Positions 1,818 to 47,743 of a DNA stretch of 64,000 nt are shown piece by piece; the first letter of the stretch is position 1, and the number at the start of each line of letters is the position of its first letter. This DNA is from Cyanidioschyzon merolae. Taxonomy: Eukaryota. The stretch lies in assembly GCA_000091205.1 (NCBI GenBank), contig AP006499.2. One strand, written 5' to 3'. Below the pieces are notes generated by a model, which did no database searches, was not told the DNA's origin, and worked only from the letters and a program-made list of their open reading frames with translations. The position numbers and the translations under genes were made by a program.

Positions 1818-3245
1818 CGGGAGACCGAAATCACGACGCAATGTATGGAATAGATCGGAGACGAAATGCATGTAGGATATATTGATTCCTGCATAGTGCA
1901 AGGAGGACTGCTTCTCTGATTCAGGTCCGTCGTACCACAGTACTCAGACGGTTGAGAAGCACTGAAAGAAAGTAGATGCGCTCTGCTCCAAATACGGGTA
2001 TTCTCGATGAATGCTTGCGGTCAACGGAAGAAAACCGACGTGTTCATCATCTGACGGGAAGCAAAAGCGACGATCGTAGCCGCAACAGGCGTCAATGATT
2101 CAGAATAGCGTATTCATGGAATCCAGGATACACTGGCAGACAGTCGCAATAGAGTCCTAGGTCACGCACGGCCGTCTTCCACCGAAATCGCAACGATTAC
2201 AGCATTCCTGTAACGTCGCGATCGGTATGAGGCATAGGGAGGTCAGTTTGTTTTTCCCAGTCGTTGAGACTCGCTTTTGACGAAACGATCCGAATAGACA
2301 TGAGTGTTTGCGGATAAGGGAGCCCGTTGTATGGACGATCGAACTCGATCAGAACGATGATATCTTCGTCTGGTGCGGCTGCAGCGGATTCACTTGGCGA
2401 CCTCGGGTTCGCTCGCAGAGGAGACTCGTAGAACAGCACCAAGCACTTGGTCGGATCCTTGAAGATTTCGCCCTGACGTTTGACGACGTTCTTCTATTCG
2501 ACAACGTGACATTTCACCATTCCCGTTGCGTTCGGGCTCTTGTCGCATCTATGTGAGTAGATTTGCTCCCCATTCCTCCGTGCACTCCGCGGTTGAACCT
2601 CATAGAACGAATGTTTTCTATCGTGAAACGTATTGATCATTCCACTGGCTGATTCGCTGAAGCGTTCTGCACTCGGTGACATCGGGGCATGTGTCGCCTT
2701 TCTTCGAGATTTCCTTCTTCCCCTGACGATGTCCTTACCTAACGGCATATACAAGTGCGTCCGATTTGAAGACATGAAAACTCTAGTGGAAACGTATCGA
2801 CATGAAAGTCGGAGATCCTGGTGGGTCTGTATCGCCGGCTGTCGAAAAACAAAGAAAAAAAGCCCTCTTCTCACCAACCATTAAGAGGAGACGACCGAGT
2901 TACAAAGACGACGGACAAGAGGGGAGATCGACGACAAAAAAAAATTTTTTTCGGCCTACAGGACGATAACGAGAATCCAGTGCCACAGAGGACACGAGTT
3001 CGTTCGGGGAATCCTTGCACTGATGAGTTCCGCCAGCGTCAATTCTTGCATGGAGTTCGTGAATCGAGCCTTCAACGCTGCCATCCATATCAGACGATGT
3101 GCGGTGCTGAGGACGACCGCTGATGATATGAGGTGATCTACCTTTCTGGGGCAGCCTTTGATCCTAGAAATGCACAAAGAAATGCTAAAATCAATAGCAG
3201 GCTGCCGGGCAAAATAGGCTGGGAAGCGTCTGCGATTGGGTATTC
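1818..3245. mobile_element. Copy A of a ~1.4 kb repeated element carrying a degenerate TnpB/Fanzor-like (IS605/OMEGA-family nuclease) remnant; inverted relative to copy B at 46410-47743
   Basis: Positions 1818-2745 are the reverse complement of 46816-47743 at about 97% identity, with coordinates summing to 49561; this was checked through shared ORFs 2197..2442(-)/47119..47364(+) and 2494..2877(-)/46801..47067(+). From 2746 to about 3245 the similarity to copy B continues but is diverged and carries indels. GC is lower than in the flanking genes. Confidence 0.5.
2633..3123 (+). pseudogene. Frameshifted TnpB/Fanzor-like nuclease C-terminal fragment (copy A), with Asp replaced by Ala in the RuvC-III motif
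   Basis: Frame 2 from 2633 reads N-V-LIIPLADSLKRSALGDIGACVAFLRDF, which resembles the TnpB segment ...NVKGM..LAKSISDAGWGEF.. that follows RuvC-II. At 3062..3091 a different frame reads NRAFNAAIHI, matching the RuvC-III signature xRDxNAAxNI but with D replaced by A. No intact long ORF spans the element. Confidence 0.4.
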
Positions 3246-4349
3246 ATTTCACTCTCCAGGGACGTAGAGCTTTTTTGTTTTGCCGATCACGTGGGATCCC
3301 AACCAAGAACGTCCAATTAGACGAATGGATGCTTTACTGGGCATGCACCGCAAACGCTGCAGGTGCGAACTGTGCAGCGCTGGTCGAAAAACAGCGTCGC
3401 ACAGCGTAGCAGGGCGGACTCATACAGGTCAACGGTTTTCGTGCATCATCAGCGGTCGACGGAAACTCGGGAAACACACACGCGAATCGCGGTGGCACCG
3501 GTAGCAAAGCGCTATACCCGCAACGACAGGCACCTTGACCAGCAAACGATGCATAGGATGCAAAGCAATGCATTTCGAAGTGGGCAGTTGTCCGGACGTT
3601 CCCGTACCGCCTCGTTGAACGAAACCAAAAGCGCGGTGCCGGGTATCATCACGAAGCCGCAGCACACGTCCTGATTCGGTGTCTCAGAAAGCAGCGACGA
3701 TGCGCTTAAACCCTCGACTCAAAGCCTTTCACAAGGTTGCGGGTTGCAAGATCCATAGTGCCGTTTGCATGACTTCACCTCTGTTAAGAGCGTTGCATCC
3801 GGCGAGTTGCAACGAACGCCACCAGCGACACGGCACAGCAGACGCTCCGGAAGGGGTGACGCAGCGGCCAAGGTACACCGCTGGAACCATCAGATATTTT
3901 CATCACTGAGAACTATCGACGAATCGAAGCTCACGCCCGTGCATCCACGTCCTTGAAAACAATCTCAGTTCAAACGAAGCCGCCTGGAAAAAGCCGCACA
4001 GCTGACCTGGGCAGCTGCAGCACCGACACCAGCGCCCGCGTCCTCCCCTCGAAGCTATGTGTAGTGAACGTCGCTGCGGAAGCGCCAAAGAACCATAGTG
4101 TCCAGGGTATGCCGTTTCGCGAGCGCAACGAAGAACTGTTGAGAGCAAAAGTGCCTTGCCGCGTAGGCGCTCACTGCGCAGACCCGAAAAGCAGCAGTTT
4201 CAACTGAGTATCAGCGACAGCGTCTCGCCGCACCTCTTGGCTGTTTCTCGTGACGGCAAAGTCGGTTGCGTGGAGGGACTGCGTCAGAGAACGCGTCCGT
4301 CCTGCAGTTCAGCGCTTTCCTGACTTGAGGGCGGGGTTAAGGACCTGGA

Positions 4350-7300
4350 ATGACAGACGCTGACCTGGCGGCATCGAGTCACCCGCTGTGGCCTCGCTGG
4401 AAAGGACTGGTTCGTTTTCTCCGTTCAAGCCGAGGTGCACTGCCCTCAGCGCAACCAGCGGCGAGACTACTCCGAACGTCGCATCGCTTGACCCGGACGC
4501 TAACAGACGAAGCGGATGTGCAGTTGGATGTCAGCGGGTCTCGCTTTCTGCTGACGAGGCGCATCCCTGACGTGGAGCCAAACCGTTTTCAGTGGCTCAT
4601 CTACGTGGGCGACTGCAGCACAAGCCCAGGTACAGTCGATCGTGACCCCGCAGGTCATCTGCTCCGCCTTTGGACGGCTGAACCGCTAGTCCCCGCAAAA
4701 AGCTCCGGCAAAAAGCGTCGTTGGCCTTGGCAGCGGCGGGACGATGCTCCAGACTGGCGGTATGTGTTCGCTCTCGATCCTGCGGGGCGGTTTGTCTACG
4801 GTCTCGCGGTGTCCGACTGCACCTCATGTCGCGTAGACTGGGCGAGCATCGAAACGCTCAACTCCAACGGAATGAGAGAGGAGGCAGTAGCAGCCTCAGT
4901 AAAGAGTCGATGGCTCCGACTGGGCCCGGGCGAAGACCTCCCCGAGTCATCCACCCATGGCGATCGCCTCGTTCACTGGTGTATTCAACCGGCAACGCAG
5001 CACGCCAGAGGCAACGGTGAACCTGCTAGCCAGGTGGTGTCCAGTGCTGCGCCAATCGGTTGCAAAGTCGAGGAGGCTGGCATGCCTCGCGAGACTGCTG
5101 CATTCCATGTCTATACAGCAGCGGGCTGGCACGCTTGCTGGACGCTGGATCGTGTCTCTGGGACACCGTCGTCACGGCCAGTGCTGGTTGAGAGCCTCGA
5201 TGCGCGTATCTGCTACGGCTGGCAGCAACAGCAATCCGAGAGCAGGTGTCTCGAGAGCTGGTTGCTTGCCTATCGAGAGCGCGATGCATCGCCGAAAGAG
5301 TGGCTGTTATTTTCTGGGTCTCCACTGTGCCAGCGTGCAGTTTGGAGCGATCCCAGCGGTTTTCTGGCGGAGGAGATTGACTTTGCGGTCGTTTTTGCAC
5401 ATGGTGCATTTCTGCTATGTGGCAGTCACACGAGGAAACGAGTCGCGCTCTTTGACCTGCGGCCTGGTGGATCACATCCGCTTCGCTGGACACGTGCATC
5501 AATGGAGCAAGAGCAGGAGCAGCAGGTGGCGGCATTGGTGTTATGGGCAGTGCCCTGGGGCTCCGATAGCGTCCTAGTCGCCATCTCGCATGAGAATGGA
5601 GATCGAAGCGATCCGAGTGTTGTTGGTCGCCTCGAATGCTGGCGCTGGGACTTGCTCGACCCAGGAACGACCTCTGAGCCTGAACGCTTGTTCGTCATCG
5701 ACTGGACGAGCCTGGTGCGGGATACGGACGCAGATGTGGGGTCAGCGCCGCCTCCCAGCGAGTATGGATGTGCAGCATCGACGCTCGCTCCGAATGTACA
5801 GACTGGTGCAGACTCGAATGCCACCGCGAGCGCCACCACAACGACAGCAGCACTGGAAGCGCAAACACCAGCACGCCGGTATCGCTGGACGTGGCTTGGC
5901 TGGCGCGTGCCCAGGAAGCAGGCTTTAAGGCAGCCTGCTGAAGCGTTGGATCCAGCAGCACCAACGCTCGTACAGATGTGTGCGGTGGGGGCTGCACAAG
6001 CGCTAGCGCTTCTCGTCGACCAGCATCACGGCTACGTGGTCTACCTCGAGCAGCCAGATCGCGCTAGTGCCCTGGCAGAAGTGCTTCTGGAGCACGACTC
6101 AGACACTTGTACCGCGCTGATGCAAGCGATGCACATTCCAGCGCCCATGGAGGCACTTTTGCGTTGGCGATGCTCACCACGCGACGCTGATGCAGCCAGG
6201 GCACTCGTCGCTGCACTTCCGACCGAGTGGCGCTGGGCTGCAGCCTACGAGGCTATCCAGAACCGCGCAGCAACGCTGAGTGCAGCACGCGTTCTGCTGC
6301 GGGCTGTGAACGCTGCCCAGGTTCCGCGTATGGTAGCAGAGGTTGCAGGTCTTTCCGCAACGCTCGTGAGTGAACGAGCGTTCCTGATCAGTGCGCTCTC
6401 CGCGGATGCCTTATCCGCCGAGCATTGTCGCGTTGCCCTTCTGCTGCACCAGCGGGCTGGCTGGGACGTTGTGCTCGAGTACCTCGGCGCGTGCAGTGCA
6501 ACCGCAGCGCTTCGAGTGCTGCTCCTCGATGAACAGGAGGTGTCGCAGCAGCAGCAGCCGTCCATCTTGGACCGGGTCTGGAAGGCAACACCGCTGACCG
6601 CGGATCCACAGCAATGCACTGCACTTATCGAGGCCAAGTTTCAACAGGATCGTGACCCGCTCAAGACCGTAGACTATTTCAGGGAACATGCCGGGCGCCT
6701 CGACGACGCCACCGGCTCTCTGCGTTTGGTTCATCGACTCCTCGCCGCAGTCATGACCGTTCTGGACGCTTCACAGGCGAGTCTGGAGCCAGCCTCATCG
6801 GTAGCGAGTGCGCGTTCAAGCGCCACCGAGTTCCTACAACAGACGCTACGCCTACGCGAGGCGCTACAGTGGGAGCAGTTGCAGCCACAGGTCGAAAACT
6901 TGTCCTTATTGGAATTTGCACGCATGGATGCGCTTCAGGTACTGGAGCGCCTCCTCAAGGCCAGTCTTCAGGCAATGCAGACCGGGCGCGCACTCCAAGA
7001 GGCGTCCATGCTCAGGGAGGTGCTCGAAAGCGACCTGGTGATGCATATGCTCGAAGGCGTCCGGGCGCTCGATGCACACCAGTTCTTGGAATCGGCGCTG
7101 GAGGCTGCGTTCATGAACGACGCAAGGCCGCTGGATACCAGGTTCGGCGCTGTGCAGATCGAGGGATGGTGCAATGTGCTCTGCGAGCTCCTGGAAGCGT
7201 CGCGTTCGTGCAAACTTTGTCGGAAACTTGACTGGCGGGACGCGTATTTCCAGAACTGGTGCTGGTCTTGGCTTGCTCGAGCGCTTCTCATCCGCGTCGC

Positions 7301-10300
7301 GCTGACCCGGTCGCAGGTTGCACGACTCGCTGCAGCGCTGCGTGCACACGACGAAGCGGAGCCCATGCTGGAGAGCATTGCGCTCAGTGAAATGCTCTCC
7401 AGCGATACACCGGATCCTTACGAGCGTCTGCAACTGCGACAATGGCTCTGGCAGGCACGACAGGAGCAGCTGCAGCGGCCTTCTTCGCGACTAGTCGCTG
7501 GGGAGTGGCGAAAGCGGTTGATTTCAGGTTACGCTACCGCTGCTGGTATGCAGGCATCGGACTCGCTGGATCGTTTAGAGGCGCTTCTGGAGATACATGG
7601 ACTGCAGCTGGACTGCAGGGAGCGGCTGAGCGGTCTCCTGGCCGCTTATCGCCGAAATACCGCACTGGTGACGCACCTGGTTGCTTGCATCGAGCAGTGC
7701 GGCGCGAGTGAGGTTACGGACGCTGCGAGCCTGCTCTGGCAGGTGGCGCTCTTCTGCTTCAAAGAGGAATCGTATCCGGTGTCGTGTACGGAGCAGCTGC
7801 TCCAGTACGGGGCAAAAACGTGGCGAAGCGGATCGCCAGCGCTCCAAGCTCGCATACGGGCGCTCTTACAGACCGCACGAATGGTGCTCGCGCTCCAGGA
7901 GCTGGGCTTGCCCACGTTGCATCCACGGCGTCTGGCTTGGGAAGCACGTCCAGCGGCTTGGCTGTGGCACTTTTCCGAGCTCATTCAACGCTCTGAAACA
8001 CGCGCCGGTGAGCCGGAGCTGCAGCAGGTTGCAGCACTGGGTCACTTGGACACCGCAACGGCATGGTTGCTGGCGCGTCGAACGCCCGACACGCCCTCAG
8101 TTTTGGACTCGATGATGTACTATCCACCCGATGCGGTTGCTTGGCTACGCAGCAACTGCCGAGAAGCAGCGCTGCACAGCAGTTTACAACGCGGCTACTC
8201 GAATGATGACATGGATGCGTCCCGTTATCGTCTATCGCGTCTGTGGGGTACGCTGGCACGTCGCCTGCTGGACGAGGCCGAGCCGTTTCGACCCCAGGTC
8301 CAGCAACTCATTTTTGACCAGCTCACAGCGAAAGGCGCTCTGCCGCTGGACCTCGCCTGGATTCAGCGCTACTACGGAGGCGAGCCCAGCGTCGACCACG
8401 CCGTGCAGGTTGCTTGCACCGCGCCCGTTTCAACGATTGCTGCAGAGGCGTGGCGGTATCGCTTGACCGTACCAGCGATCCTGTATAGGTACCCGCTGGA
8501 ACAGCTGGACCCGACATCCTGGCTCGATACGAGCATCGCGCTCTGGATCCTCCGTCAGCCAGCGGATACCCCGGTGGGGCGCGCACCATTCCTTCCACCC
8601 GCTGGGGATGTGCGTCTGCACACCTGCGGCATGTTGCAGCACTGGGCAAGCGAGCCAGCTATGCCAACAGCTGCGCAAGCGCTGGTGCTCAAATTTCAGC
8701 GAGCTGCTGAGGCTTTCTGCGAGGCTTTCCGCTGGGTTTCACAGGTGATGCAGCACCCGGCGCTCGAGCAAGATACGGATCTGTGCGAGCGCTATGTCCG
8801 TCGCTTCCTTGAGGATGCAAGTTACCGCGAGACGGTCGTCGTAGCAGCACTAGCGCATACGACTGATGAGGGACGGCTTGCCGTCTTGATCCAACCGGAG
8901 ATTGACGCTGCCGCTCGGCTTGGGGTATCGTCGGCGCAGTGCCGCTTGGAGCATGTTCGGTGGTGTTTCGAACAGGCACAGCGAGCTGGTGCTGCTGCTG
9001 GTGCTGCTGGTGCTACTGCTGCTGCTGCTGGTGTCGTCGACGTCGTCGAGGCCACAGCGCCCCGCTCACCGATACGCGGAAGCACGCTGTCGTCGGTGGA
9101 GTCACCGGCGCGTTGGCACCAGGAGCACGCCCTTGTGACGTTGCTGGTGCAGCACGATGGACTCGGGCAGGCGCTGCTTGCACTCACGAATGAGCATCTG
9201 GAGGCTATGGCACAAAAGGCGCCGCATCCGCTAGTGTATTTGGTGCTGGCGTCCACGGAACGACATCCGCGAGCAGTTGCGCTATCCGAGGCATTGCGTG
9301 AGCACGTCGTCGATATGGCGTTGGATTGGGCGTCACTGTGGCTACTGTTTACTGCGAATGCGGATGCATACGGGCCCCTGGCAACCTACCTGTGCGAGCG
9401 CTCCGCAACGGACCCGGAAGCTGGCCTACAGCTCTGGCGCCTCGTAGCGATATGTGTATCGACGCCAGCGCCGCTCTTGGCTGCGGCGGTCGAAGGGTTC
9501 CTCTCACGCGCCTCATCAGCGGAGCAAGTTTATCGGTGGCTTCTCGAGACCACGCGACACGATGACGATGCCGTTCGACACGAGCTTCTCGGCGTCTGGG
9601 CCGCGGCACTCGTACAATGCGGAGGACGATCAGTAGGAACAGCAGCAGCAGAGCGCAGCCGTATTTTCGAATGGATCGACGGATTCCCGCTCGATACCAT
9701 GCGAGGCGGTGAGGAGCTTCAGTGCGAGTCTCAGTTTCTCGTGTTCTTTGTTCGACGTGTTCTTGAATATATGGAGGCGCTTTGGAACGATCGCGTCCTA
9801 GCGAGCGCGCGGGTGTCAGCAATGCTCTGTGAGCGCTACGCTTCTGCATGCTCAGCGGCGTTCCAGGCGAGTCTCGGCAGCGGGGAATTGTCGCCAGCAG
9901 TGCTGAACACTCAGGATAGCTCGCTCGGCGCTCGTGCAGAGCGCTCCGCAGACCGGCTGGTTGTGGAGCAGACGTTAGCGTGGCTGCGGACGTTGTCGAC
10001 AGCGGAGCTGCAGCAGTGGCAACCGCGACTGCATGCCATTTTCGCTATCGCGGACGCTACGGTATCCTTGACGGTTCCCGAAGCGGCCGTTCCAGCACGT
10101 GACGAGGCACAGCGCCGTGTCGAGCAGGAGGAGTCCAACGCGGACGCATCACCCGTTTTGACTAGTGATAGCGCGTCGAACGAGTCCACGGAAGATTCCA
10201 TTGTGGCAGGTATCTTACGTGGTAACATCTGGCAAGCAGGTTCGACGTTATTACAGCGTCGTCGTTGGTCATTGGTATATGGCAACACACCAGAGGCGGC

Positions 10301-10451
10301 GCTTGTGCTTCTCCAGCGTCACCTGGAGGAGGCGCTCGCGACGTCGTCAAGTGGTGTGGAGGCGTCACGTTTCGCGTCACGCTCTGAAGTGCTGCGTGCG
10401 CTGGCTGTCGTATCCGAGTGGCGCACGGCGCTCGGGCTACCGGATACTTGA
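4350..10451 (+). CDS. Giant hypothetical protein (2033 aa), Ala/Leu-rich with low-complexity tracts; no domain recognised
   Basis: An uninterrupted 6.1 kb ORF beginning with ATG at 4350. It is far too long to be a chance ORF even at this GC content. It contains a (GCT)n-encoded poly-Ala run near 8990-9040. Confidence 0.6.
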   Translation: MTDADLAASSHPLWPRWKGLVRFLRSSRGALPSAQPAARLLRTSHRLTRTLTDEADVQLDVSGSRFLLTRRIPDVEPNRFQWLIYVGDCSTSPGTVDRDPAGHLLRLWTAEPLVPAKSSGKKRRWPWQRRDDAPDWRYVFALDPAGRFVYGLAVSDCTSCRVDWASIETLNSNGMREEAVAASVKSRWLRLGPGEDLPESSTHGDRLVHWCIQPATQHARGNGEPASQVVSSAAPIGCKVEEAGMPRETAAFHVYTAAGWHACWTLDRVSGTPSSRPVLVESLDARICYGWQQQQSESRCLESWLLAYRERDASPKEWLLFSGSPLCQRAVWSDPSGFLAEEIDFAVVFAHGAFLLCGSHTRKRVALFDLRPGGSHPLRWTRASMEQEQEQQVAALVLWAVPWGSDSVLVAISHENGDRSDPSVVGRLECWRWDLLDPGTTSEPERLFVIDWTSLVRDTDADVGSAPPPSEYGCAASTLAPNVQTGADSNATASATTTTAALEAQTPARRYRWTWLGWRVPRKQALRQPAEALDPAAPTLVQMCAVGAAQALALLVDQHHGYVVYLEQPDRASALAEVLLEHDSDTCTALMQAMHIPAPMEALLRWRCSPRDADAARALVAALPTEWRWAAAYEAIQNRAATLSAARVLLRAVNAAQVPRMVAEVAGLSATLVSERAFLISALSADALSAEHCRVALLLHQRAGWDVVLEYLGACSATAALRVLLLDEQEVSQQQQPSILDRVWKATPLTADPQQCTALIEAKFQQDRDPLKTVDYFREHAGRLDDATGSLRLVHRLLAAVMTVLDASQASLEPASSVASARSSATEFLQQTLRLREALQWEQLQPQVENLSLLEFARMDALQVLERLLKASLQAMQTGRALQEASMLREVLESDLVMHMLEGVRALDAHQFLESALEAAFMNDARPLDTRFGAVQIEGWCNVLCELLEASRSCKLCRKLDWRDAYFQNWCWSWLARALLIRVALTRSQVARLAAALRAHDEAEPMLESIALSEMLSSDTPDPYERLQLRQWLWQARQEQLQRPSSRLVAGEWRKRLISGYATAAGMQASDSLDRLEALLEIHGLQLDCRERLSGLLAAYRRNTALVTHLVACIEQCGASEVTDAASLLWQVALFCFKEESYPVSCTEQLLQYGAKTWRSGSPALQARIRALLQTARMVLALQELGLPTLHPRRLAWEARPAAWLWHFSELIQRSETRAGEPELQQVAALGHLDTATAWLLARRTPDTPSVLDSMMYYPPDAVAWLRSNCREAALHSSLQRGYSNDDMDASRYRLSRLWGTLARRLLDEAEPFRPQVQQLIFDQLTAKGALPLDLAWIQRYYGGEPSVDHAVQVACTAPVSTIAAEAWRYRLTVPAILYRYPLEQLDPTSWLDTSIALWILRQPADTPVGRAPFLPPAGDVRLHTCGMLQHWASEPAMPTAAQALVLKFQRAAEAFCEAFRWVSQVMQHPALEQDTDLCERYVRRFLEDASYRETVVVAALAHTTDEGRLAVLIQPEIDAAARLGVSSAQCRLEHVRWCFEQAQRAGAAAGAAGATAAAAGVVDVVEATAPRSPIRGSTLSSVESPARWHQEHALVTLLVQHDGLGQALLALTNEHLEAMAQKAPHPLVYLVLASTERHPRAVALSEALREHVVDMALDWASLWLLFTANADAYGPLATYLCERSATDPEAGLQLWRLVAICVSTPAPLLAAAVEGFLSRASSAEQVYRWLLETTRHDDDAVRHELLGVWAAALVQCGGRSVGTAAAERSRIFEWIDGFPLDTMRGGEELQCESQFLVFFVRRVLEYMEALWNDRVLASARVSAMLCERYASACSAAFQASLGSGELSPAVLNTQDSSLGARAERSADRLVVEQTLAWLRTLSTAELQQWQPRLHAIFAIADATVSLTVPEAAVPARDEAQRRVEQEESNADASPVLTSDSASNESTEDSIVAGILRGNIWQAGSTLLQRRRWSLVYGNTPEAALVLLQRHLEEALATSSSGVEASRFASRSEVLRALAVVSEWRTALGLPDT

Positions 10452-10478
10452 ACAGTATGAGCGCGTTGCCGAAACATA

Positions 10479-10502
10479 ATGATGATGATGATGATGATGA
10501 TG
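10479..10502. repeat. (ATG)8 microsatellite
   Basis: The sequence atgatgatgatgatgatgatgatg lies immediately 3' of the 4350..10451 ORF. Confidence 0.9.
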
Positions 10503-19849: not shown

Positions 19850-22800
19850 GCTTATGAGCACGAGACGGCAGTTCGTTTCTCAGCGAAGCGCGCTACTCGA
19901 CAGTGGGCAGCGACCGCGTCGCGCAAACAACACGCGCGATCCGCCAGGAACTTTCGCGCCAAAATTCTCGGGCGCTTCCCAGACGATCGGGTTCAGTGTT
20001 GCCTCGGGCCAGCGATGTTCCTCTATGGGTCGACGCGCGATTTCCTTGGATCGATAACCCCGCAAAATCTCCACCATGCATTAGGCGTCAGAATCGAAGT
20101 CCACATCACCGTCGCCTGTAGGATTGCTGCTTTATATTTCAGGAAGGGCGTAGTGCTTTTCATCAGAGCACGATGCTCGTCATCTGAAGCATCATGCGTC
20201 GTATCCGCCGCGTATGCAACTCTCTGTGATCGGTGCGCTTGAATCAGACTGTATTTGTATGGGGAAAATATGCCGCCTACAAGCAGCAGTGGAACTGCGT
20301 CTCCGGAACGGTCCTATCTAGCTGCATTTGGATTGGGGGAATCACTCACCAGCGAACGACTGCAGATTTCTGCGAAAAGAGCGCTTGCCGATTGCTTCGG
20401 GGTGCATACGCTGGGACGCTACCTCAGCGCTGTTGCTAAGAGCAGCTTCCCCGCCGCCTGACCTGACGGAGTGCACGCCCGGCTCCGACTCGAATGCGAC
20501 AAAAGCGAGCGCGACACCGTGCTTCGAACGCTGATTCGATATGGCGGGGCTCGAGCGTCATTGCGTTCCTCGAGCGTGGACGTATGTACGACTAGGTGCA
20601 TCTTTTGGATGCAACCGAGCGGCTCTTGAGTCTTCATTTGGGATCAATTGTCATTTCTTGGATGATAAAGGGTTTCGACATGCCAGATTGCATAAGGATT
20701 TTCCATCGAGACTCCGTGTGCTCCATGCAATATTCAATACCTGGATCCCATGAGGTGCTTCGACCCGAGCGATCTCGTTTGAGTGCATATGCTCGGTGAT
20801 AGTGTATATTTAGTTATAAAAAATAATGGAATACCGTTCTCGTTCATGAATGTTCCATGAAAAGCGTGTTCGGTATACATTTATGCGGCGCTCCAGTATC
20901 GCTCGATCACTGATTGCACCACCTGACTGCCGTGGTACATGCGGGAATCCAGTGCCCCATTTCCTGTCCCCTAGTTTTTTCATAGAACTTTTTCAACATT
21001 TCATCCGAATTTCTACACGGGGAACTAGATGATTCCGTCGAAATTTCGCTCGACACAAACGCTCTGAAAGCTCCTGAGGCACGTGCCATCCATTCATGTT
21101 GACGATTGAGAATCCAGTCCCGCTGCAGGAACTGCTTTCGCGCATGGCTGCTGATAGCGTCACACCATAACATGCCACTTGCCCTGGTCTCCATCACCAC
21201 CTGACGTTCAGTCAGCTTACCCTACACCATCTCGTGCTTCCATCTCCGTTTCACGCTCTTCTTATCTACCGTTTTCAGTGTCCACTCGCGCTCGTGATGC
21301 GTTGACATGGTCCTCAGTTCATCAACGAGAACCGATCAGCATCGTTTCCTGCACTCGGTGTTCGCTCTCGTCGACGGAGCAGGAGCGAGTCCCTTGCGTG
21401 CTGCACCAGGTCCAGCGCCATAGGCCACGAGCGATCGACGGTGCTTAACGGTCATTTCCTTTTCCAATTCATGGAAGAACGCGGCAAGTGCTCGATTCTT
21501 GACTCCGCGCAACCGAAACCGTTAACGACTCCAGCATGGACTCATGCACTCCAACCAAGGATCGTCCAGATGATCCATTTGGACGATGATTGGCTCTCGG
21601 AGATGGGCGTACGAGGCTTCTCCGTCTGCTCAGTAGGGCGCTCAGAGCATCGAGTTGTGTTTTGACGCAGCCATTCCGTCGGCTGGTTTGCCTCCTGACC
21701 CCCATAATGCCAGACTCCCGGTCCCGCCGAGCCCTGAAACTTTGAGCGGCTTCATCTGGTTTCTGTTCAGGCATTTGTGCTCTCGTTCTAGAGTTGCAGC
21801 GACGTCCACGACGCTCTTCAACAGGGGATCCGCATTCGCCATGCAGCCTTTATCTTCATCTACTTTGAACGCTCCGAATTGAGCCTCTTCGCTCGACCCA
21901 GGTCTATGTTTCGTACTCTTCATCCAGATTGTTATTCTTGGGGTCTCTATCACCCCTGTAAACTTCTTTCCATTTCCTCGCAGTCAACGGAAGATCTTGA
22001 ACGACCTTCGCAGACGCTCGTCCCGATGCATTTTGCACGCTTTCTGGTTTTTCGCAGAGGCCAGCCTCGTTTTTAACTTGTCGTTCACCCAGCGGATGAC
22101 ATAGTTTGAGACGCGATTCTCCAATTTTTTTTCAATCCTCGGGGTTCGTACGCACTGGGACGACGCTCGGAGAGAAACTCGCCTCGGCAATGCACGTATC
22201 CATTACTCGTCCATTACCTTTTTGTCGCCTTCTCAGGCGCGGGCACGCCAGCTGAACGGAGCGCGCTTTCGACGTCCTCACGGGCACGAGTAGAGAAGCA
22301 ATACAGCATTTCAGGATTGGCGAAGGTAGAGAACTGTGCGTAGAAGAAGGGCACGGCGGATGCGAACGACTCCTTTATGAAGCCGGTAATGCGAAGACAA
22401 CCTTTGGCAACTGTCGAGACGCTTTCGACGCACTTGATCGGTGGAAACTAAGCTCGTACGAAATGCAGCGCAACACGATTCTCATGCGCGAGTTGCCCCA
22501 CGGAGTTTGAACGATAGAAAGCCAAGTTGTTTGCAAGCAGGACAGAGGAACCTGGAAAAGGGTATACAGGAAGAGGGCTGCGACGAAGTACGGGGTGATG
22601 AACGATGTTCTCCATTTGGCGGTGTATGGGCGACCAAACTTGTGAATCATCAACGAGGCTGTTGTTTTAGGAAAGCTCGGTTGCTCTTTCTATACCTATC
22701 AGGCTTCTATGCATAGCATGCAGGTCTTCAACTCGTGGTTTCTAGCCAATCTGCGCCTCTGGACAAGCGCAAAACGTCGTCGATCCCCAGGCCCCGGACT

Positions 22801-26710: not shown

Positions 26711-27180
26711 GCGCGATTAAAGCACGCTACGCATAACGAATTCGAAAGCATGAACGCTTGCATCTTTGCATTGGATGACGATATCGGTTATTTCAGCTTC
26801 AAGAATACGCGATTAAAGCACGCTACGCATAACGAATTCGAAAGCATGAACGCTTGCATCTTTGCATTGGATGACGATATCGGTTATTTCAGCTTCAAGA
26901 ATACGCGATTAAAGCACGCTACGCATAACGAATTCGAAAGCATGAACGCTTGCATCTTTGCATTGGATGACGATATCGGTTATTTCAGCTTCAAGAATAC
27001 GCGATTAAAGCACGCTACGCATAACGAATTCGAAAGCATGAACGCTTGCATCTTTGCATTGGATGATGATATCGGTCATTTCAGCTTCAAGAATACGCGA
27101 TTAAAGCATGCTACGCATAACGAATTCGAAAGCATGAACGCTTGCATCTTTGCATTGGATGACGATATCGGGTATTTCAC
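26711..27180. repeat. Tandem minisatellite, 96-bp unit x about 4.9 copies
   Basis: Near-identical units start at 26713, 26809, 26905, 27001 and 27097. Because 96 = 3 x 32, the array yields a spurious ORF (26750..27229) repeating MNACIFALDDDIGYFSFKNTRLKHATHNEFES. The unit contains the cgaattcg palindrome. Confidence 0.9.
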
Positions 27181-36620: not shown

Positions 36621-37859
36621 TTAGAGACCGTTCACGGGGACGGTCGCCGGGGCGCGGGCTCGGAAAAGCTGGCAGCTCACGGTCAAGGGTCGCACGACCA
36701 CTGGTGTGTGTGGGGCAACCAAGCAGGCCATTCCCGGTGAAAGGCGATAACTGTGGTCGATCCCGTGTTGGGAAATTTGTGCCTCGCCTTCTACATCGAG
36801 CAGGATGGAATAACTTGCTGATGACTCTAAATGCAAGTCCGCGGATTCCTCTCCGTGGCGTTCCAGTTCAAGACACTCGAGTTCGAATTCGCAGACCGGG
36901 GCGAGGAAGCGATTCTGAGCATCCCGTTGCAAAATTTGCACCGGGTCTTTGCAGCGATACGTGAGCATCTTGCACAACGTCTCGACGTCCTTATGTTTGT
37001 CGGTCAGTCCCGCCCGAACAACATTATCGCTAGTCGCCATGATTTCCACACAGTCTCCCTCTAGGTACGCGTGTGGCTCATTCGGTTCGATGAAAATGGC
37101 TTGACCAGGTTCTAACCTCACATGATTGAGCAGGAAAGCAGCGAAAATGCCGGCATCGTTTGGGTACTGCTTGAGGAGTCGTAGCGCGAGTGCATGCTCC
37201 GCATCCAGAACATCGGCGGCCTCTAACCGCTGGCGGAGCTGGTGCGCTTGTTGCCGCGAAACGTCTTCGTTTCGCATGAGGGATTCGAAGAGTTTTCGGA
37301 GTCCGTCCGGTGCAGATGGTGAGGAGCAAAACGTTTCCGCATACGCCCCACAAGCGCCACGAAACTCAGGGACCTGCTTCAGTGCTCGGACTATCTCCGC
37401 TACTGGTCGAAAACCGAGGAGCGCCTCGAACTGCCCTGGTCCAAGGCAAACACACATTTCTGGCTTGTGGTTGCCGTCTTTGTAAAGCTCAGGAAACTGC
37501 TTATGCAAAACTTTCGCCAGCGCAATATCCGGGTGCGCCTGAATAGAAAGCGCCCGCTCCACGCTCAGCACTTTCAGAAGAAACGGCAGCGAGCCTGCAG
37601 GAACAAAGATTGAAACGGGAACGCTTTCGTTGGCCTCGGTAACGACGGAGGCCTCTCCAGACGGGTGCGCGCCGAGCCAGAGTTCCGCGTAGGAAACGGA
37701 CTCCGAGACTCGTTCCGACTCCAGTGTCCCTTGAGCGACTGCGTAACGGGCAACCCGCGACCCCATACCACGTCGACCCCAGGCGTAGGTCTGGACGTGG
37801 CCTCGCAGGAGCCAAATACCCTGCTGTTGGCGTTTCGCGTCCACGGAAAGTGCCACCAT
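36621..37859 (-). CDS. Mannose-6-phosphate isomerase, type I
   Basis: VQTYAWG, YAELWLGAHPSGEA, LPFLLKVLSVERALSIQAHPD, GNHKPEMCVCLGPGQFEALLGFRPVAEIV and EPNEPHAYLEGDCVEIMATSDNVVRAGLT are collinear with human MPI and yeast PMI40, including the Zn-ligand positions. The start is ATG at 37857-37859. Confidence 0.88.
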   Translation of the reverse strand: MVALSVDAKRQQQGIWLLRGHVQTYAWGRRGMGSRVARYAVAQGTLESERVSESVSYAELWLGAHPSGEASVVTEANESVPVSIFVPAGSLPFLLKVLSVERALSIQAHPDIALAKVLHKQFPELYKDGNHKPEMCVCLGPGQFEALLGFRPVAEIVRALKQVPEFRGACGAYAETFCSSPSAPDGLRKLFESLMRNEDVSRQQAHQLRQRLEAADVLDAEHALALRLLKQYPNDAGIFAAFLLNHVRLEPGQAIFIEPNEPHAYLEGDCVEIMATSDNVVRAGLTDKHKDVETLCKMLTYRCKDPVQILQRDAQNRFLAPVCEFELECLELERHGEESADLHLESSASYSILLDVEGEAQISQHGIDHSYRLSPGMACLVAPHTPVVVRPLTVSCQLFRARAPATVPVNGL

Positions 37860-41527: not shown

Positions 41528-42722
41528 TTGAAAGGACAGATCCTAGCTACAAAGACGCAAATAGGTATTGGCGCTAAACGAAGACCCAGAAGTTGCTTTC
41601 AACGCTGGGGCACTGACGAGAACAGGGTCCGCGCGTTCACCTGTCGTGAGAAAGAGGACACGCGTCCACCCAGAGCGCTGTCAAGCGCAGCGCACTCCTG
41701 AACGCTTAAAAGCCACTGCGCGCCCACGAGCCCGCTTTCCAAACTCTCAGCACGTTCCTCTGTGCGTAACAATGTTATTTACCAGAAAAAAACGCTTCGT
41801 CTGACTTGAGCAGCGCCTCGTCTCAAACCTTCCACTACAGAGTTTTTCCTACAAGTCGCATTTTAGCTATTTGTGACGCCCGCATCCCAAAGCGCGTTGC
41901 TTCCGTGCGCGCCCCGCACACGGATGCCGCCGCTGTTTAGCATGCGTGTCCGCGGCGTCGAATGCCGCCGCATGCCGAATGAACAGTCTACCAGCGATTG
42001 GGACATAATGGACACCGCCGCTCGAGTCGCCGCTGATCCACCAGCACCACGACATGGACCGGGGGCCTCCCTGGACTGCGCGATAGCAAGCGACATCCGG
42101 GAAGGCGCGCACCACTCTACGCCCCAGCTCCGAGTTCCATTGTTCATACTTCTCATCGGATATGCTGGTCATGTCGTGCGTTCTGTTGTGCCCTGAGTCT
42201 GCAGTGAGCGTTCACTAAAGCGCCCATAGCGACACTGCGAACGCTGCACGGAGACAAAGCGGCTTTGCCAAGCCACTGAGGGGAAGTTGGCTCGAGAAGC
42301 GGCTGCGCATCAAGCGTTACAGGAAAACTCCACTGGAGTTTCGGCAGTGCGAATACCAACATTCCTGGATCGACCAAGCCTCTGTTCACGAGGAGGCAGC
42401 ATCCTCGCATTAGAGCAACGTGGTCCTGGTTCTTGGGGAGCGGAGCTTGCTTCCCTGGGCATTCGTAGCGCTCAGGCATCGGGGAGCGTATCCGGTCAGG
42501 TGTGTTGTGATGTCAGCGCCATGGGGGCAGATGGCGTGCGCGCGCTCCCGCGTCGGCCGCAGCATAGCGTTGACAGCAGGAAACTGCGCGCTTCCATACA
42601 ACGAAGTCTGTACCTGGAAACACTGGTGTTTGTGTCTCGGCACCAGAGACTGAGTACGTGAAGCACTGAGGAATCTTGAATATATAGCAGTGATCCTTGA
42701 ACGAGTCCAAGGTGTAGTACAC

Positions 42723-45700
42723 ATGACGGTGGAAGGCTCTTTAAAGGGCGACGCTGCTGCACCCGTGGCAGACGCGGAGCCTGCAGCGTCTCCTCGGAAC
42801 GAACCGGAAGCAGCGCCTGGTCCGCCCTCACCGGACACGTCGAGGCGACTCAACCATGAATTGGCGAAACAAAATGCAGAAGTTGCAAGAGACACACAGT
42901 GGTCGACGCGTCAACGCCTCAAGTACCTGGTTTTGAGGTACGATATCTTCGCACACTTTTTATCGAGCGGATCACTCGCGAAGCAGAAACTTGTGGAAGC
43001 TGCCGGCTCCGTGGAAACCGCTTCTCCCGGAGAAGGAGCAGCGGGAGGTACTCCCGGTCGGCGTCGTCTGACGGAACGCGAAGAGGACGCGCTCCTGCTT
43101 GAAGCGGACGAGGAAGGGCATAGCGAGTCGGTACACTTGACGGTGCAGCCACCAGGCATACGTGGAACGATGCGGCCATACCAGATCGAGGGCCTAAACT
43201 GGCTAGTCCGACTGCATCAGCACGGCATCAACGGCATTCTTGCGGACGAAATGGGTCTCGGCAAGACGCTGCAGACCATTGCCCTGCTAGCGTTTCTGAA
43301 GGTATACAAAGGCATCCGCGGACCGCACTTGGTGATCGCGCCCAAGTCCACGCTCGGGAACTGGAATCTGGAGTTTGAGAAATTCTGCCCAGATTTCCGC
43401 GTCGTTCGTTTTCACGGGGACCAGGAAGAGCGAGCCCGAGTAGCCGCGTCGCAGCTCATTGTGAATCGGTTTGACGTTTGCGTTACCAGTTATGAGATTG
43501 CGATCCTTGAAAAGGCGGTGCTGCGTAAGTTTCATTGGCGTTATCTCATTATTGATGAAGCGCACCGCATCAAGAATGAGAACTCAGTACTCAGCCAGGT
43601 GGTGCGCATGTACAATTCTCAGAATCGTCTTTTGATCACCGGTACACCGCTGCAAAATAACTTGCATGAGCTCTGGGCGCTGTTGAATTTTCTGCTCCCT
43701 GATGTGTTCAGCTCTTCGGAGGATTTCGACGCCTGGTTTGAGCAAGTAGAGGGAACCACTGAGGAGGACGCCAAGGCAGAAATGGTTCGTCAATTGCATG
43801 CCGTTCTTCGGCCGTTTCTCCTGCGTCGCCTCAAGTCAGAAGTAGCGCGAGAGCTGCCGCCGAAAAAGGAGAGAATCGTATTCGTTCGCTTGACGAAAAT
43901 GCAGCATGAGTTGTATCGGTCCCTGCTTAAGAAAGATGTGGATGCAATTAGCGGGCAAGGCGGCGACCGCGCTCGACTGCTGAACATCCTAATGCAGCTG
44001 CGCAAGTGCTGCAATCACCCGTATCTATTCGAAGGCGTTGAAGATCGCACCTTGGATCCGTTTGGTGAGCATGTTGTGCAGAACAGTGCAAAATTGGCGT
44101 TGCTAGACAAACTGTTACCTCGCTTGCGCGCTGAGGGGCATCGGGTTTTGATCTTTTCTCAGATGACGCGTATGCTGGACATTTTGGAGGACTACTGCTG
44201 TGAGCAGATGCGAGGGTATCCGTACTGCCGTATCGACGGCTCGACGGATAGCGAAACGCGCGAGCGCATGATCGAGGAATTCAACGCAGAAGGAAGCGAC
44301 AAGTTTATCTTCTTGTTATCGACGCGCGCCGGGGGTCTCGGCATCAATCTGGCCTCAGCTGATACCGTGATTCTGTATGACTCAGACTGGAATCCGCAAG
44401 TTGATTTGCAAGCGATGGATCGTGCCCACCGCATTGGACAGAAGCGGCCTGTTACGGTGCTGCGTCTCATTTGTGAGTCAACAGTCGAAGAGCGCATTCT
44501 GCGCCGAGCCTTAATGAAGCTCAAGATAGACAACATGGTCATCCAGCAGGGCAGGCTGGTGGAGGGCCAGAAAGCGCTTGCTCGAGGCGAAGTGCTCGAC
44601 ATGATTCGATTCGGTGCAGATTCCTTCTTCCGAGCGGACGCACAAGACTTCAAAGACGAGGACCTGGATGAAATCCTGCAACGCGCCGAAGCAAAGACCA
44701 AAGAGGTAACCGAAAGCATGGAAGAAGAGGCTCGGAAACGGAGCCAGCATGGGCTCAACCTCATGGATTTCAAAATGAGCGATGACGTCGGCTCCGTCTA
44801 CCAATTCGAGGGAAAGGACTGGTCGGCAGAGGCAGCGTCATCGGCTAAGAATTTCTTCTTCCTCGATGTGGGCAAGCGAGAGCGCCGGAACACAATCAAA
44901 TCCTACGATGAAGCGGCCTACTTCCGCGAAGCACTGTATCACGGCGGTGCCAGCGGCGATGTAGGTAGCACCCAACCACAACCAAAGCAGCGCATGCGCC
45001 TGCCGCCCGAACCCAAAGTCTATGACTGGCAATTCTTCAACGTCGATCGCATCATGGAGTTGTACGAGAAAGAGCGCCAAATAATTGATGAATACAATCG
45101 AACATGCGAGAATCTGACTGAAGATCAGATGCCGCCGGAGCCGGAGCCTCTTTCGCCGAGCGAACGTGCGGAGCTCGAGCGTCTGCTTCAAGAAGGTTTC
45201 AGTAACTGGCGGTATCGCGAGTTCCAGCAGTTTCTGCGGGCTTGTGAGCGCCACGGCCGCCACAACATAGAAGCGATTGCTGCCGATCTCGCACAGGTGA
45301 AAACCTTCGACGAAGTTAAGGAGTATGCGGAAGCGTTTTGGAGACTGGGTCCGGACCATATCCGTGACTGGCCACGCCTCCTTGAGCAGATCGAGCAAGG
45401 TGAAGCACGTGTGGCCAAGCGGGAAGAGATGGAGCGAGCGCTGCGGAACAAAATAGCACGTTATGCGGATCCATGGAACGAGCTCGAGTTACCCGCTTCT
45501 GTCCAAGGTAAGGTGTTCTCCGATGAGGAGGATCGCTTCCTTCTCATTATGGTGAATAACCTCGGTTACGGACGCTGGGAGGAGCTCAAGATGGAAATTC
45601 GTCGCAGCTGGCGTTTCCGTTTTGACTGGTTGATCAAATCTCGCTCAGCTGTAGAACTGAAGCGGCGTGTTGACGTCCTACTCCGAGCTATTGAACGGGA

Positions 45701-46046
45701 GAATGCCGAGTTCGAAAAAGCCGAAGCTGCAGCCGCGAATCGTAAGAAGCACGCCCAGGTTCGTAGCGTACGTCGCGTCAAATCCGAGGCAAGTTCGAGC
45801 GAAAAGGAAAGCGCACACAACGACAGCCGCACCACAAAGCGTGCAGCGGCAGGGAAAGCGTCTGAGCAGAAGCCCACGGCAAACGCCAAGCGTAAGGCAT
45901 CGTCAAGCACCGTGACGACCTTGGACTCCACGTCCAAGCGCTCGAAACGCCCCAACACCGACTCCGTGACCGCGACGAGCGAGAAGCGCTCTACCGGACC
46001 CATCGAACGGTACGCTCGTCGCAAAGGCACTACAAAAGCAGCCTGA
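42723..46046 (+). CDS. ISWI-type SNF2-family chromatin-remodeling ATPase
   Basis: Helicase motifs GILADEMGLGKTLQTIALLAFL, DEAHRIKN and LLITGTPLQNNLHELWALLNFLLPDVF are present, plus the C-terminal helicase domain (LIFSQMTRMLDILEDY...DWNPQVDLQAMDRAHRIGQKRPV) and the HAND-SANT-SLIDE region. The listed ORF starts on GTG at 42690; the first ATG is at 42723. Confidence 0.9.
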   Translation: MTVEGSLKGDAAAPVADAEPAASPRNEPEAAPGPPSPDTSRRLNHELAKQNAEVARDTQWSTRQRLKYLVLRYDIFAHFLSSGSLAKQKLVEAAGSVETASPGEGAAGGTPGRRRLTEREEDALLLEADEEGHSESVHLTVQPPGIRGTMRPYQIEGLNWLVRLHQHGINGILADEMGLGKTLQTIALLAFLKVYKGIRGPHLVIAPKSTLGNWNLEFEKFCPDFRVVRFHGDQEERARVAASQLIVNRFDVCVTSYEIAILEKAVLRKFHWRYLIIDEAHRIKNENSVLSQVVRMYNSQNRLLITGTPLQNNLHELWALLNFLLPDVFSSSEDFDAWFEQVEGTTEEDAKAEMVRQLHAVLRPFLLRRLKSEVARELPPKKERIVFVRLTKMQHELYRSLLKKDVDAISGQGGDRARLLNILMQLRKCCNHPYLFEGVEDRTLDPFGEHVVQNSAKLALLDKLLPRLRAEGHRVLIFSQMTRMLDILEDYCCEQMRGYPYCRIDGSTDSETRERMIEEFNAEGSDKFIFLLSTRAGGLGINLASADTVILYDSDWNPQVDLQAMDRAHRIGQKRPVTVLRLICESTVEERILRRALMKLKIDNMVIQQGRLVEGQKALARGEVLDMIRFGADSFFRADAQDFKDEDLDEILQRAEAKTKEVTESMEEEARKRSQHGLNLMDFKMSDDVGSVYQFEGKDWSAEAASSAKNFFFLDVGKRERRNTIKSYDEAAYFREALYHGGASGDVGSTQPQPKQRMRLPPEPKVYDWQFFNVDRIMELYEKERQIIDEYNRTCENLTEDQMPPEPEPLSPSERAELERLLQEGFSNWRYREFQQFLRACERHGRHNIEAIAADLAQVKTFDEVKEYAEAFWRLGPDHIRDWPRLLEQIEQGEARVAKREEMERALRNKIARYADPWNELELPASVQGKVFSDEEDRFLLIMVNNLGYGRWEELKMEIRRSWRFRFDWLIKSRSAVELKRRVDVLLRAIERENAEFEKAEAAAANRKKHAQVRSVRRVKSEASSSEKESAHNDSRTTKRAAAGKASEQKPTANAKRKASSSTVTTLDSTSKRSKRPNTDSVTATSEKRSTGPIERYARRKGTTKAA

Positions 46047-46409: not shown

Positions 46410-46928
46410 TCAAGGGTAAATGTATCTACCCGCCCGCAGACGCTTACCAATCTTTTTCAACTGGCCGCCTGCTATCGACTTGCGCTTCTTTTTAGACGCT
46501 TCGAGGATCAGAGGTTGTCCCACAGAGTTAAATCGCGTCAGCTTCTCGGGTCTCGTGTTCAGCACCGCACATCGACTGATGTGGATGGCGGCGTTAAAGT
46601 CCCGGTTGATGAACTCCATGCTTTTGTCGCCTCTGCTTGATCTCATCAATAAAAGGATTCCTGGAACTAGGGCCTTCAGTTCGGGTTGCTGCTCTGTCAG
46701 CTTTCGGTGCTTTTCTATCGCCGACGCGCTCCGCGGCTTTTTCTCCATCTCGAGCTTCTGGAGTGCACGCCCCAGCTCATCCCTTGGATTGTTAAAATGA
46801 ATGCATTTCATTATGCCGTTAGGTAAGGACATCATCAGGGGAAGAAGGAAATCTCGAAGAAAGGCGACACATGCCCCGATGTCACCGAGTGCAGAACGCT
46901 TCAGCGAATCAGCCAGTGGAATGATCAA
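46410..46928 (-). pseudogene. TnpB/Fanzor-like nuclease C-terminal fragment (172 codons) with the RuvC-III motif NRDFNAAIHI; the N-terminal two-thirds are missing or disrupted
   Basis: The ORF reads MIIPLADSLKRSALGDIGACVAFLRDF...RSSRGDKSMEFINRDFNAAIHISRCAVL. The motif at 46578..46607 on the minus strand matches the TnpB/Cas12/Fanzor RuvC-III consensus (D/N)RDxNAAxNI. The upstream LAxSLxxSAxGDIG segment resembles the TnpB LAKSISDAGWGEF helix. No zinc-finger CxxC pairs are present, and upstream frames contain stops. Confidence 0.45.
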
Positions 46929-47743
46929 TACGTTTCACGATAGAAAGCATTCGTTCTATGAGGTTCAACCGCGGAGTGCACGGAGGAATGAGGGGCAAAT
47001 CTACTCACATAGATGCGACAAGAGCCCGAACGCAACGGGAATGGTGAAATGTCACGTTGTCGAATAGAAGAACGTCGTCAAACGTCAGGGCGAAATCTTC
47101 AAGGATCCGACCAAGTGGTTGGTGCTGTTCTACGAGTCTTCTCTACGAGCGAACCCGAGGCCGCCAAGTGAATCCGCTGCAGCCGCACCAGACGAAGATA
47201 TCATCGTTCTGATCGAGTTCGATCGTCCATACAACGGGCTCCCTTATCCGCAAACACTCATGTCTATTCGGATCGTTTCGTCAAAAGCGAGTCTCAACGA
47301 CTGGGAAAAACAAACTGACCTCCCTATGCCTCATACCGATCGCGACGTTACAGGAATGCTGTAATCGTTGCGATTTCGGTGGAAGACGGCCGTGCGTGAC
47401 CTAGGACTCTATTGCGACTGTTTGCCAGTGTATCCTGGATTCCATGAATACGCTATTCTGAATCATTGACGCCTGTTGCGGCTACGATCGTCGCTTTTGC
47501 TTCCCGTCAGGTGATGAACACGTCGGTTTTCTTCCGTTGACCGCAAGCATTCATCGAGAATACCCCTATTTGGAGCAGAGCGCATCTACTTTCTTTCAGT
47601 GCTTCTCAACCGTCTGAGTACTGTGGTACGACGGACCTGAATCAGAGAAGCAGTCCTCCTTGCACTATGCAGGAATCAATATATCCTACATGCATTTCGT
47701 CTCCGATCTATTCCATACATTGCGTCGTGATTTCGGTCTCCTG
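46410..47743. mobile_element. Copy B of the ~1.4 kb repeated element with a TnpB/Fanzor-like remnant; inverted relative to copy A
   Basis: Positions 46816-47743 are the reverse complement of 1818-2745 at about 97% identity. From 46415 to 46815 it is diverged but homologous to 2746-3245 (for example ...gatagcaggcggccag... against ...aatagcaggctgccgg...). It sits 370 bp downstream of the ISWI stop codon. Confidence 0.5.

Follow-up and report, generated by a model that had tools for sequence, protein, structure and literature searches.

Inverted remnants of a probable composite Fanzor1 transposon in Cyanidioschyzon merolae share a 930-bp core subject to gene conversion

Gene conversion from arm to arm is known from the palindromes of the human Y chromosome and from plastid inverted repeats, and non-allelic homologous recombination between inverted repeats underlies the int22h inversions in human F8 and the Ty-mediated inversions in yeast. 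Among mobile elements carrying Fanzor1, the eukaryotic TnpB, CMe-1A is an old family of Cyanidioschyzon merolae whose approximately 150 copies are each about 80% identical to a consensus of 3,169 bp; terminal inverted repeats are lacking, the family was left without a class, and its 5′ 635 bp are shared with a separate element, TE-N2_CMe, at 95% identity (PMC3627910). PUl-1 of Pythium ultimum is a Mariner-type Fanzor1 element (PMC3627910). Here we describe a pair of inverted repeats, referred to as the L (left) and R (right) copies, in a stretch of 64,000 nucleotides of C. merolae strain 10D (GenBank assembly GCA_000091205.1, contig AP006499.2; in the following, the window). The two copies are probably an old, dead pair of composite transposons whose 930-bp core was homogenised by recurrent non-allelic gene conversion. 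The features concerned are the following.

1820-2749, plus strand: L core, homogenised 5′ module of the putative composite transposon, 98.8% identical to the R core, without gaps and with sharp edges
46812-47741, minus strand: R core, homogenised 930-bp module of the right copy, bridged in the reference orientation by contigs L029, L030 and L031
2443-2634, plus strand: putative fragment of a DDE transposase of the IS630/Tc1-mariner type in the L core (Pfam DDE_3)
46927-47118, minus strand: putative DDE fragment in the R core, mirror of 2443-2634, located by the correspondence of x with 49561-x and by translation
2753-3400 (3′ end approximate), plus strand: L tail, internally deleted CMe-1-type Fanzor1 (blastn, tblastn and alignments)
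46436-46811, minus strand: R tail, C-terminal remnant of a CMe-1-type Fanzor1 (blastn and tblastn)
48166-48324, minus strand: fragment of the CMe-1A/TE-N2_CMe 5′ module (consensus 4-160; local alignment, z = 26.6)
3401-46435, no strand: single-copy segment of about 43 kb, from CMQ349C to the gene of an ISWI-type SNF2 ATPase

Base-by-base comparison showed an inverted, gap-free tract, 1820-2749 against 46812-47741, with 11 differences in 930 nt (98.8% identity) and identical runs of up to 261 nt. Each position x corresponds to 49561-x across the tract, with zero indels. A blastn comparison gave 1816-2749 against 47745-46812 at 98.7% and zero gaps, and a repeat search of the window gave inverted arms at 1811-2767 and 46794-47750 (957 nt, 98%) as well as a weaker second inverted pair at 3002-3242 and 46427-46667 (241 nt, 71%). 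A chance origin of a 930-nt gap-free match at 98.8% is ruled out. The L copy lies on the plus strand and the R copy on the minus strand, with their 3′ ends facing inward into the segment and with 44,062 nt between the arms. Differences become dense at once beyond 1819 and 2750, and identity falls to about 71% in the adjacent parts. From the tract to the 71% block there are 252 nt in L and 144 nt in R, a length difference of 108 nt. No residual homology relative to shuffled sequences was found by local alignment in the 220-nt outer flanks (z = -0.8), nor in the 80 nt past the 3′ edge of the tract (z = -1.0). The initial annotation, made from the sequence alone, had put the identity at about 97% over about 930 bp, which proved slightly too low; its coordinate sum of 49561 without indels was borne out by the base-by-base comparison, and the indels of 80-100 nt that it had placed in the diverged neighbouring part agree with the length difference of 108 nt.

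The differences between the two 10D cores were clustered, three of them lying within 28 nt (2416-2443) and three within 48 nt (2567-2614), and runs of 184 and 261 nt were identical. These clusters resemble imported patches, for which a third, more diverged copy of the core elsewhere could have been the donor.

To place the parts inward of the cores, the CMe-1A consensus DNA and the 734-aa Fanzor1 protein were taken from the supplementary files of Bao & Jurka 2013 (PMC3627910) and mapped onto the window. The R tail matched consensus 2737-3084 at 46780-46436 (blastn, 72.7%, E 5e-46) and CMe-1 residues 612-726 at 46778-46437 (tblastn, 56% identity, E 1.5e-29). The L tail matched the consensus in two pieces, 869-972, comprising 5′UTR and the first Fanzor1 codons, at 2753-2862 (70%) and 2850-2960 at 3002-3109 (74.8%), and residues 632-726 at 2948-3232 (tblastn, 45%, E 1.6e-17). 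In L, a start codon at 2802 (MKVGDPGGSVSPA...) is followed by about 50 N-terminal codons and then by a jump to the C-terminal RuvC-III region, after which 3′ sequence follows. The RuvC-III motif reads NRAFNAAIHI at 3062-3091 in L, where the catalytic Asp is lost, and NRDFNAAIHI at 46578-46607 in R, where it is kept. A RuvC-III remnant had been noticed before and is real, both motifs lying within the tblastn matches to the C-terminus of the CMe-1 Fanzor1 protein; that the repeats are probably two copies of a decayed DDE transposase module joined to a CMe-1 Fanzor1 gene had been missed. No intact ORF of about 734 aa is present: of the Fanzor1 codons, about 50 at the N-terminus and about 95 at the C-terminus, with stops, are left in L, and about 115 at the C-terminus in R, which has lost the Fanzor N-terminus. 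The deletion endpoints differ, since L resumes near consensus 2790-2800 and R joins at about 2737 some 30 nt past the core. The Fanzor-like fragments gave no match to any Pfam or NCBIfam model, and a large protein database returned only the same sequence.

In a three-way alignment with the CMe-1A consensus, 64 derived substitutions and two indels were common to both tails, while 82 changes were specific to L and 48 to R. Because of these shared derived characters, the tails are to be read from their sequences as sisters or as members of one subfamily that later diverged heavily. The published 5′ module of CMe-1A (consensus 1 to about 870) is absent from both copies, and the 930-bp core stands in its place. 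The junction of the core with the CMe-1 part appears to lie at the same consensus position in both copies, about 870-892, which is only suggestive as it rests on about 20 nt. The fragment of the CMe-1A/TE-N2_CMe 5′ module at 48166-48324 is separated from the R core by 425 nt on its outer side and shares the strand of the R copy.

Every reading frame of the core is interrupted by stop codons. A match to Pfam DDE_3 (PF13358) in the core scored 36-38 bits (cutoff 28.6) but spanned only profile positions 67-132 of 146, and the NCBIfam model IS630 gave 37.8 bits on the same stretch (2443-2634), far below its cutoff of 100. The fragment in L contains 'LLFDNVTFHHS' and 'LPIPPCTPRLNLIERMFSIVKR' and is interrupted by a stop codon. 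Alignment with the Mariner transposase of PUl-1 showed 27% identity over 62 aa (E 4e-4), the rest of the core being unrecognisable, so that a full transposase is not recoverable by this comparison. By eye, 'WTIELDQ' is possibly the region of the first Asp. Neither a helix-turn-helix domain nor an OrfB/TnpB domain was found with Pfam and NCBIfam in any frame of either copy, the C-terminal third of DDE_3 being the only match. No terminal inverted repeats link the 5′ end of the core with its own 3′ end or with the 3′ end of the tail, and repeated binding motifs were at chance level (8 matches against 5.8 expected). The DDE-like fragment thus passes the Pfam threshold but lacks the other testable defining features of IS630/Tc1/mariner elements. 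Compared with the CMe-1A consensus on both strands, the core gave an alignment score at the level of shuffled sequences. Protein searches returned only near-identical metagenome copies of both loci, with no intact distant relative of the DDE-like or Fanzor-like ORF, and the searches for protein homologues gave no third genomic context of the core. No match to the repeat was found in a phage database, and a bacterial or viral origin of the window was rejected.

Evidence of exchange between the two loci came from other strains. About 35 contigs were fetched by means of variants of the flanking genes from hot-spring metagenome and Sequence Read Archive (SRA) assemblies; they are about 99% identical to the window and represent the same species. 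Nearly all of them end inside the core, which is what a two-copy repeat should cause in short-read assemblies. All strains examined carried the core at both loci. At sites 2710 (T/A), 2715 (T/C), 2727 (C/T) and 2614 (T/C), both states were observed at both loci, and all four sites lie at most 137 nt from the locus-specific tails, where an assembly with k = 141 cannot switch copies. Deeper haplotype blocks (2567/2570/2614, 2543/2587/2588 and 2278/2365/2368) were also common to both loci, with the caveat of assembler chimerism.

On the R side, divergence from 10D was 0.18% in the ISWI gene, 0.26% in the tail and 1.6-2.8% in the core; on the L side it was 0.5-0.6% in CMQ349C, 0.4-0.6% in the spacer, 0.15-0.8% in the tail and 1.2-4.1% in the core. 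Between strains, the core is therefore 3-10 times as diverged as tail, spacer and genes, with a step at the tract borders. Within 10D the L and R cores differ at 11 of 930 positions (1.18%), whereas orthologous R cores differ from the 10D R core at 15-26 of 930. R cores of other strains were equidistant from the two 10D cores, with 17 and 20, 15 and 20, 26 and 23, and 21 and 22 differences from 10D-R and 10D-L, respectively. Alleles common to the two loci, paralogues that are more alike than orthologues and a domain with sharp borders are in combination a classic signature, and show that the 930-bp module has undergone concerted evolution by recurrent non-allelic gene conversion. The partial gene conversion proposed in the initial annotation is thus supported by the polymorphisms common to both loci, by the raised divergence of the core and by the equidistance of the R cores.

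The contrast between a core at 98.8% and tails at 71% is striking, and might also be expected if the core were functional, as a domesticated gene, a regulatory element or an RNA, and both copies were kept alike by purifying selection. This is extremely improbable, as the core has stops in all frames and no Rfam family match, is the most variable part of the region between strains and is wholly absent from relatives. That the repeats reflect a collapsed or duplicated region of the reference deserves next to no credence either. Repeats are classic sites of misassembly, which is nothing specific to this pair, and the junctions of the outer-right flank with the core, of the core with the R tail and of the core with the L tail, as well as a full bridge across R, were recovered independently in many metagenome and SRA assemblies.

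The orientation of the segment was followed in the same material. The R repeat is spanned in full by three contigs, each from a different JGI sample (L029, 42396-49011; L030, 42514-47986; L031, 42574-47994), and all three are collinear with the reference, running from ISWI through R tail and core to the outer-right flank. No inverted junction was found among the approximately 35 contigs. In one relative, represented by GCA_041825655.1 and two JGI contigs and with 82% identity in ISWI, the order of the genes for mannose-6-phosphate isomerase (PMI), OST3, ISWI (plus strand), an NnrU-domain protein (minus strand) and FGAM synthase is as in 10D, and the spacer between ISWI and NnrU measures 922 nt compared with 3,074 nt in 10D. 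In a second relative, with 75% ISWI identity, the two genes are adjacent, convergent and 17 nt apart. Neither relative carries core or CMe-1 sequence in this spacer. Since the relatives keep the adjacency of ISWI and NnrU without the element, the ancestral state at this junction is the reference orientation, and the R copy represents an insertion that arose after the split from the nearest sequenced relatives. Such a lineage-specific insertion fits the repeat expansion reported for Cyanidioschyzon, in which repeats make up 12.7% of the genome compared with 0.59% in Cyanidiococcus (PMC9812998).

It had been suggested that the inverted repeats are substrates for homologous recombination and that the segment may be polymorphic in orientation between strains. 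The former holds, as 930 nt at 98.8% are long and similar enough, and crossovers between the arms are mechanistically plausible given that C. merolae has efficient homologous recombination, used for gene targeting (PMC3764038), and a sexual cycle (PMC13353863). Crossovers within arms that demonstrably exchange sequence could flip the 43.5-kb segment, so that both orientations would segregate in C. merolae. Site 2727 looks reciprocal, with C at L and T at R in 10D and T at L and C at R in Ga0080006_1184279, which two successive crossovers would yield; the site is a CpG, however, and parallel mutation could mimic the swap. In a 2026 comparison of telomere-to-telomere (T2T) assemblies, strains 10D and MS1 Ha3, at 0.71% divergence, differed by one inversion and a single reciprocal translocation, for which chromosomes 3 and 19 are illustrated; no rearrangement of chromosome 17 was reported, although a 43-kb inversion could escape a whole-genome dot plot (PMC13353863). 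We therefore regard an orientation polymorphism as unlikely: only the ancestral reference orientation was seen, in the three bridging contigs, in the two relatives and in the published comparison, albeit in a small sample, and comparison of gene order with relatives gave no second orientation. Rare or local inversions in other genomes are possible.

One contig, L032 (Logan SRR29605740), was considered as a structural variant upstream of ISWI and rejected: its positions 1-1304 encode an unrelated WD40-repeat protein and join the rest abruptly at window position 42602, so that it is most likely chimeric. A switch operated by a site-specific invertase, of the inverton or shufflon type, was likewise rejected, given the lack of a recombinase domain in or beside the repeats, the eukaryotic host and the derivation of the arms from transposons.

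These results can be joined in one proposal. The repeats would be two dead copies, each with internal deletions, of a single composite DNA transposon of C. merolae. In each, a 930-bp 5′ module with a decayed DDE remnant of the IS630/Tc1-mariner type would precede a CMe-1 Fanzor1 gene read in the same direction. The copies lie, inverted, in two intergenic regions 44 kb apart. Their Fanzor parts now share about 71% identity, bear internal deletions that end at different points and have lost their collinearity. The 930-bp module is still collinear and is held at about 99% by recurrent gene conversion between the loci. Exchange would stop at the unique 5′ flank and at the indel-ridden Fanzor junction, because homologous recombination needs uninterrupted homology, and the tails would fall outside the conversion domain because independent deletions and indels destroyed their collinearity. 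Crossovers from arm to arm would invert the 43.5-kb segment.

The main competitor of this proposal, which we consider rather unlikely, is that the 930-bp core was recently mobilised or duplicated beside two old, diverged CMe-1 remnants, either by site-preferring insertion at the CMe-1 5′ junction or in a one-off repair or template-switch event, so that its identity would mainly reflect youth, with some later conversion. The initial annotation had likewise named, as its alternative to conversion, a younger secondary duplication of the core alone. The sharp tract edges without outside homology, and the coincidence of the 3′ edge with the module junction, would be explained in this way, and the CMe-1 family is modular, the 5′ part of CMe-1A being 95% identical to TE-N2_CMe against about 80% between copies and consensus (PMC3627910). 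Sister tails and an apparently shared core junction, however, are easier to reconcile with one composite ancestor than with two landings; terminal inverted repeats are missing from the core, which appeared in no third context in the searches and was present at both loci in all strains examined. As orthologous cores are more diverged than the 10D paralogues, conversion would be needed in any case.

Several points weigh against a composite transposon pair homogenised by recurrent conversion. No more than about 3 nt separate the end of the tract from the junction of core and CMe-1 module, with no homology beyond, and a discrete young unit predicts the same. The label 'transposase module' is partly inference, since only the last third of the DDE domain is recognisable. 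In a 24-mer scan of JGI metagenome contigs, the core was found only in the L and R contexts, with matches in two contigs only; the scan of JGI metagenome DNA yielded three stretches in all. Metagenome assemblers pop bubbles and build chimeric paths in collapsed repeats, which makes alleles more than about 140 nt from anchors unsafe, and the high between-strain diversity of the core together with the clustered differences could derive from a third, more diverged donor copy. As to orientation, the bridging sample is small, its three contigs may represent one population and their joins could be choices of the assembler, and no contig bridges the L repeat, all L-side contigs stopping within the core. 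Even so, we hold the composite pair with recurrent conversion to be the probable explanation.

A further, very unlikely idea is that intact CMe-1 Fanzor1 RNA-guided nucleases elsewhere cut at or near the dead copies and that the breaks drive the unusually strong exchange within the 930-bp module and occasional inversion; in a milder version, the core would be the lost IS630/Tc1-mariner partner of CMe-1.

The genes assigned in the bracketed segment and in the outer-right flank each matched a C. merolae 10D protein exactly, as listed here.

4350-10451: CMQ349C
36621-37859: mannose-6-phosphate isomerase
42723-46046: ISWI-type SNF2 ATPase
49123-50424: NnrU-domain protein
51020-55351: FGAM synthase

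Pfam domains agreed with these assignments, and an OST3-family gene also lies inside the segment. The letter Q in the CMQ gene names denotes chromosome 17. Protein accessions run consecutively across the segment, from BAM82205 (CMQ349C) to BAM82218 (ISWI). Thirteen genes had been counted there initially; the number lies at 13-14, and the consecutive accession numbering suggests 14 annotated genes. The whole inner segment was also recovered as one 44.7-kb metagenome contig with both ends within the two cores. In the outer-left flank, two ORFs overlap by about 90 nt, one on the plus strand (60-1100) that is MA3-domain-like and one on the minus strand (1007-1702) resembling a PAC3 proteasome chaperone (21.1 bits against a cutoff of 21.2). 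Neither had a match in the protein collection under any ATG start tried. Rfam and tRNA scans of the window gave no matches.

Further sequences related to Fanzor1 and to CMe-1A were observed in the window. Within the segment, 21114-21992 (minus strand) is a divergent Fanzor1-like stretch (CMe-1 residues 363-673, 28% identity, E 9e-24 in tblastn); no ORF of at least 120 aa remains in it, and it therefore reads as a putative pseudogene of a different Fanzor1 lineage. At 57366-57704 (minus strand), a stretch resembling the Fanzor1 C-terminus (residues 565-679, 34% identity, E 9e-9 in tblastn) is directly adjoined by six tandem 62-nt units that are 96% identical (56754-57124). Fragments of the CMe-1A/TE-N2_CMe 5′ module, 67-80% identical to consensus positions of about 5-256, lie at 27586-27764 (plus), 42098-42296 (plus), 48166-48324 (minus) and 55672-55878 (minus). 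The fragment at 42098-42296 coincides with the start point of many metagenome contigs just upstream of ISWI, as a multi-copy element would lead one to expect. Five tandem 96-nt units at 97% identity (26700-27179) precede the fragment beginning at 27586 by about 400 nt. In GCA_041825655.1, a 32-nt match (87.5%) to CMe-1A consensus 222-253 was found at 8443-8474 of contig L042, some 1.5 kb ahead of the ISWI orthologue. Its place corresponds roughly to that of a TE-N2-like fragment in the window, and the match may be an old shared insertion or a conserved motif.

Both the transposon family, CMe-1, and the process, arm-to-arm gene conversion, are already known. The known process explains a puzzling pattern of divergence, and the population data document non-allelic gene conversion on a 0.93-kb transposon module in a sexual red alga. 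What is modestly new is the position of a CMe-1 Fanzor1 gene directly downstream of a putative DDE transposase remnant, which hints at the lost autonomous partner of the family. This order, DDE and then Fanzor1, is the architecture of the oomycete Mariner-type Fanzor1 elements and offers a lead for classifying CMe-1, for which no mobilising enzyme was known; if the core were indeed the lost transposase partner of CMe-1, it would place a family left unclassified by Bao & Jurka (PMC3627910). Were nucleases to drive the exchange, a natural eukaryotic population would offer a case of non-allelic gene conversion stimulated by nucleases. The repeat pair is a natural reporter, with which four PCR primers would measure rates of conversion and inversion in C. 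merolae, a model with efficient gene targeting. For annotation, it matters that essentially all short-read assemblies break at these two repeats.

Compared with the systems introduced at the outset, the pair resembles int22h and Ty repeats in that inverted copies of about 1 kb, some 99% identical, flank single-copy genes, but no inverted arrangement has been observed here. With CMe-1A it shares 3′ parts that in both copies match the consensus (72.7% and 74.8%) and the 734-aa Fanzor1 protein including RuvC-III, with the ORF start kept in L; like the published family it lacks terminal inverted repeats (PMC3627910), and the identity of about 71% between the tails is as expected for an old family with copies at about 80% to the consensus. 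It differs from CMe-1A in that the 5′ region of about 870 bp is replaced by the DDE-bearing 930-bp core and most of the Fanzor ORF is lost, and in that the tails carry shared derived characters apart from the consensus. PUl-1 is bounded by terminal inverted repeats of 24 bp and by TA target duplications, neither of which is evident here, but it likewise has a DDE transposase of about 300 codons followed by Fanzor1 on the same strand (PMC3627910). Some 40 codons lie between the DDE motif and the end of the core, which agrees with the 308-aa transposase of PUl-1, and 930 nt come close to the length of that ORF. The arms are short (0.93 kb), 44 kb apart and transposon remnants on which no function depends, unlike those of the Y-chromosome palindromes and plastid inverted repeats, with which the pair nevertheless shares near-identical inverted arms, diverging flanks, paralogues closer than orthologues, shared polymorphism and sharp borders.

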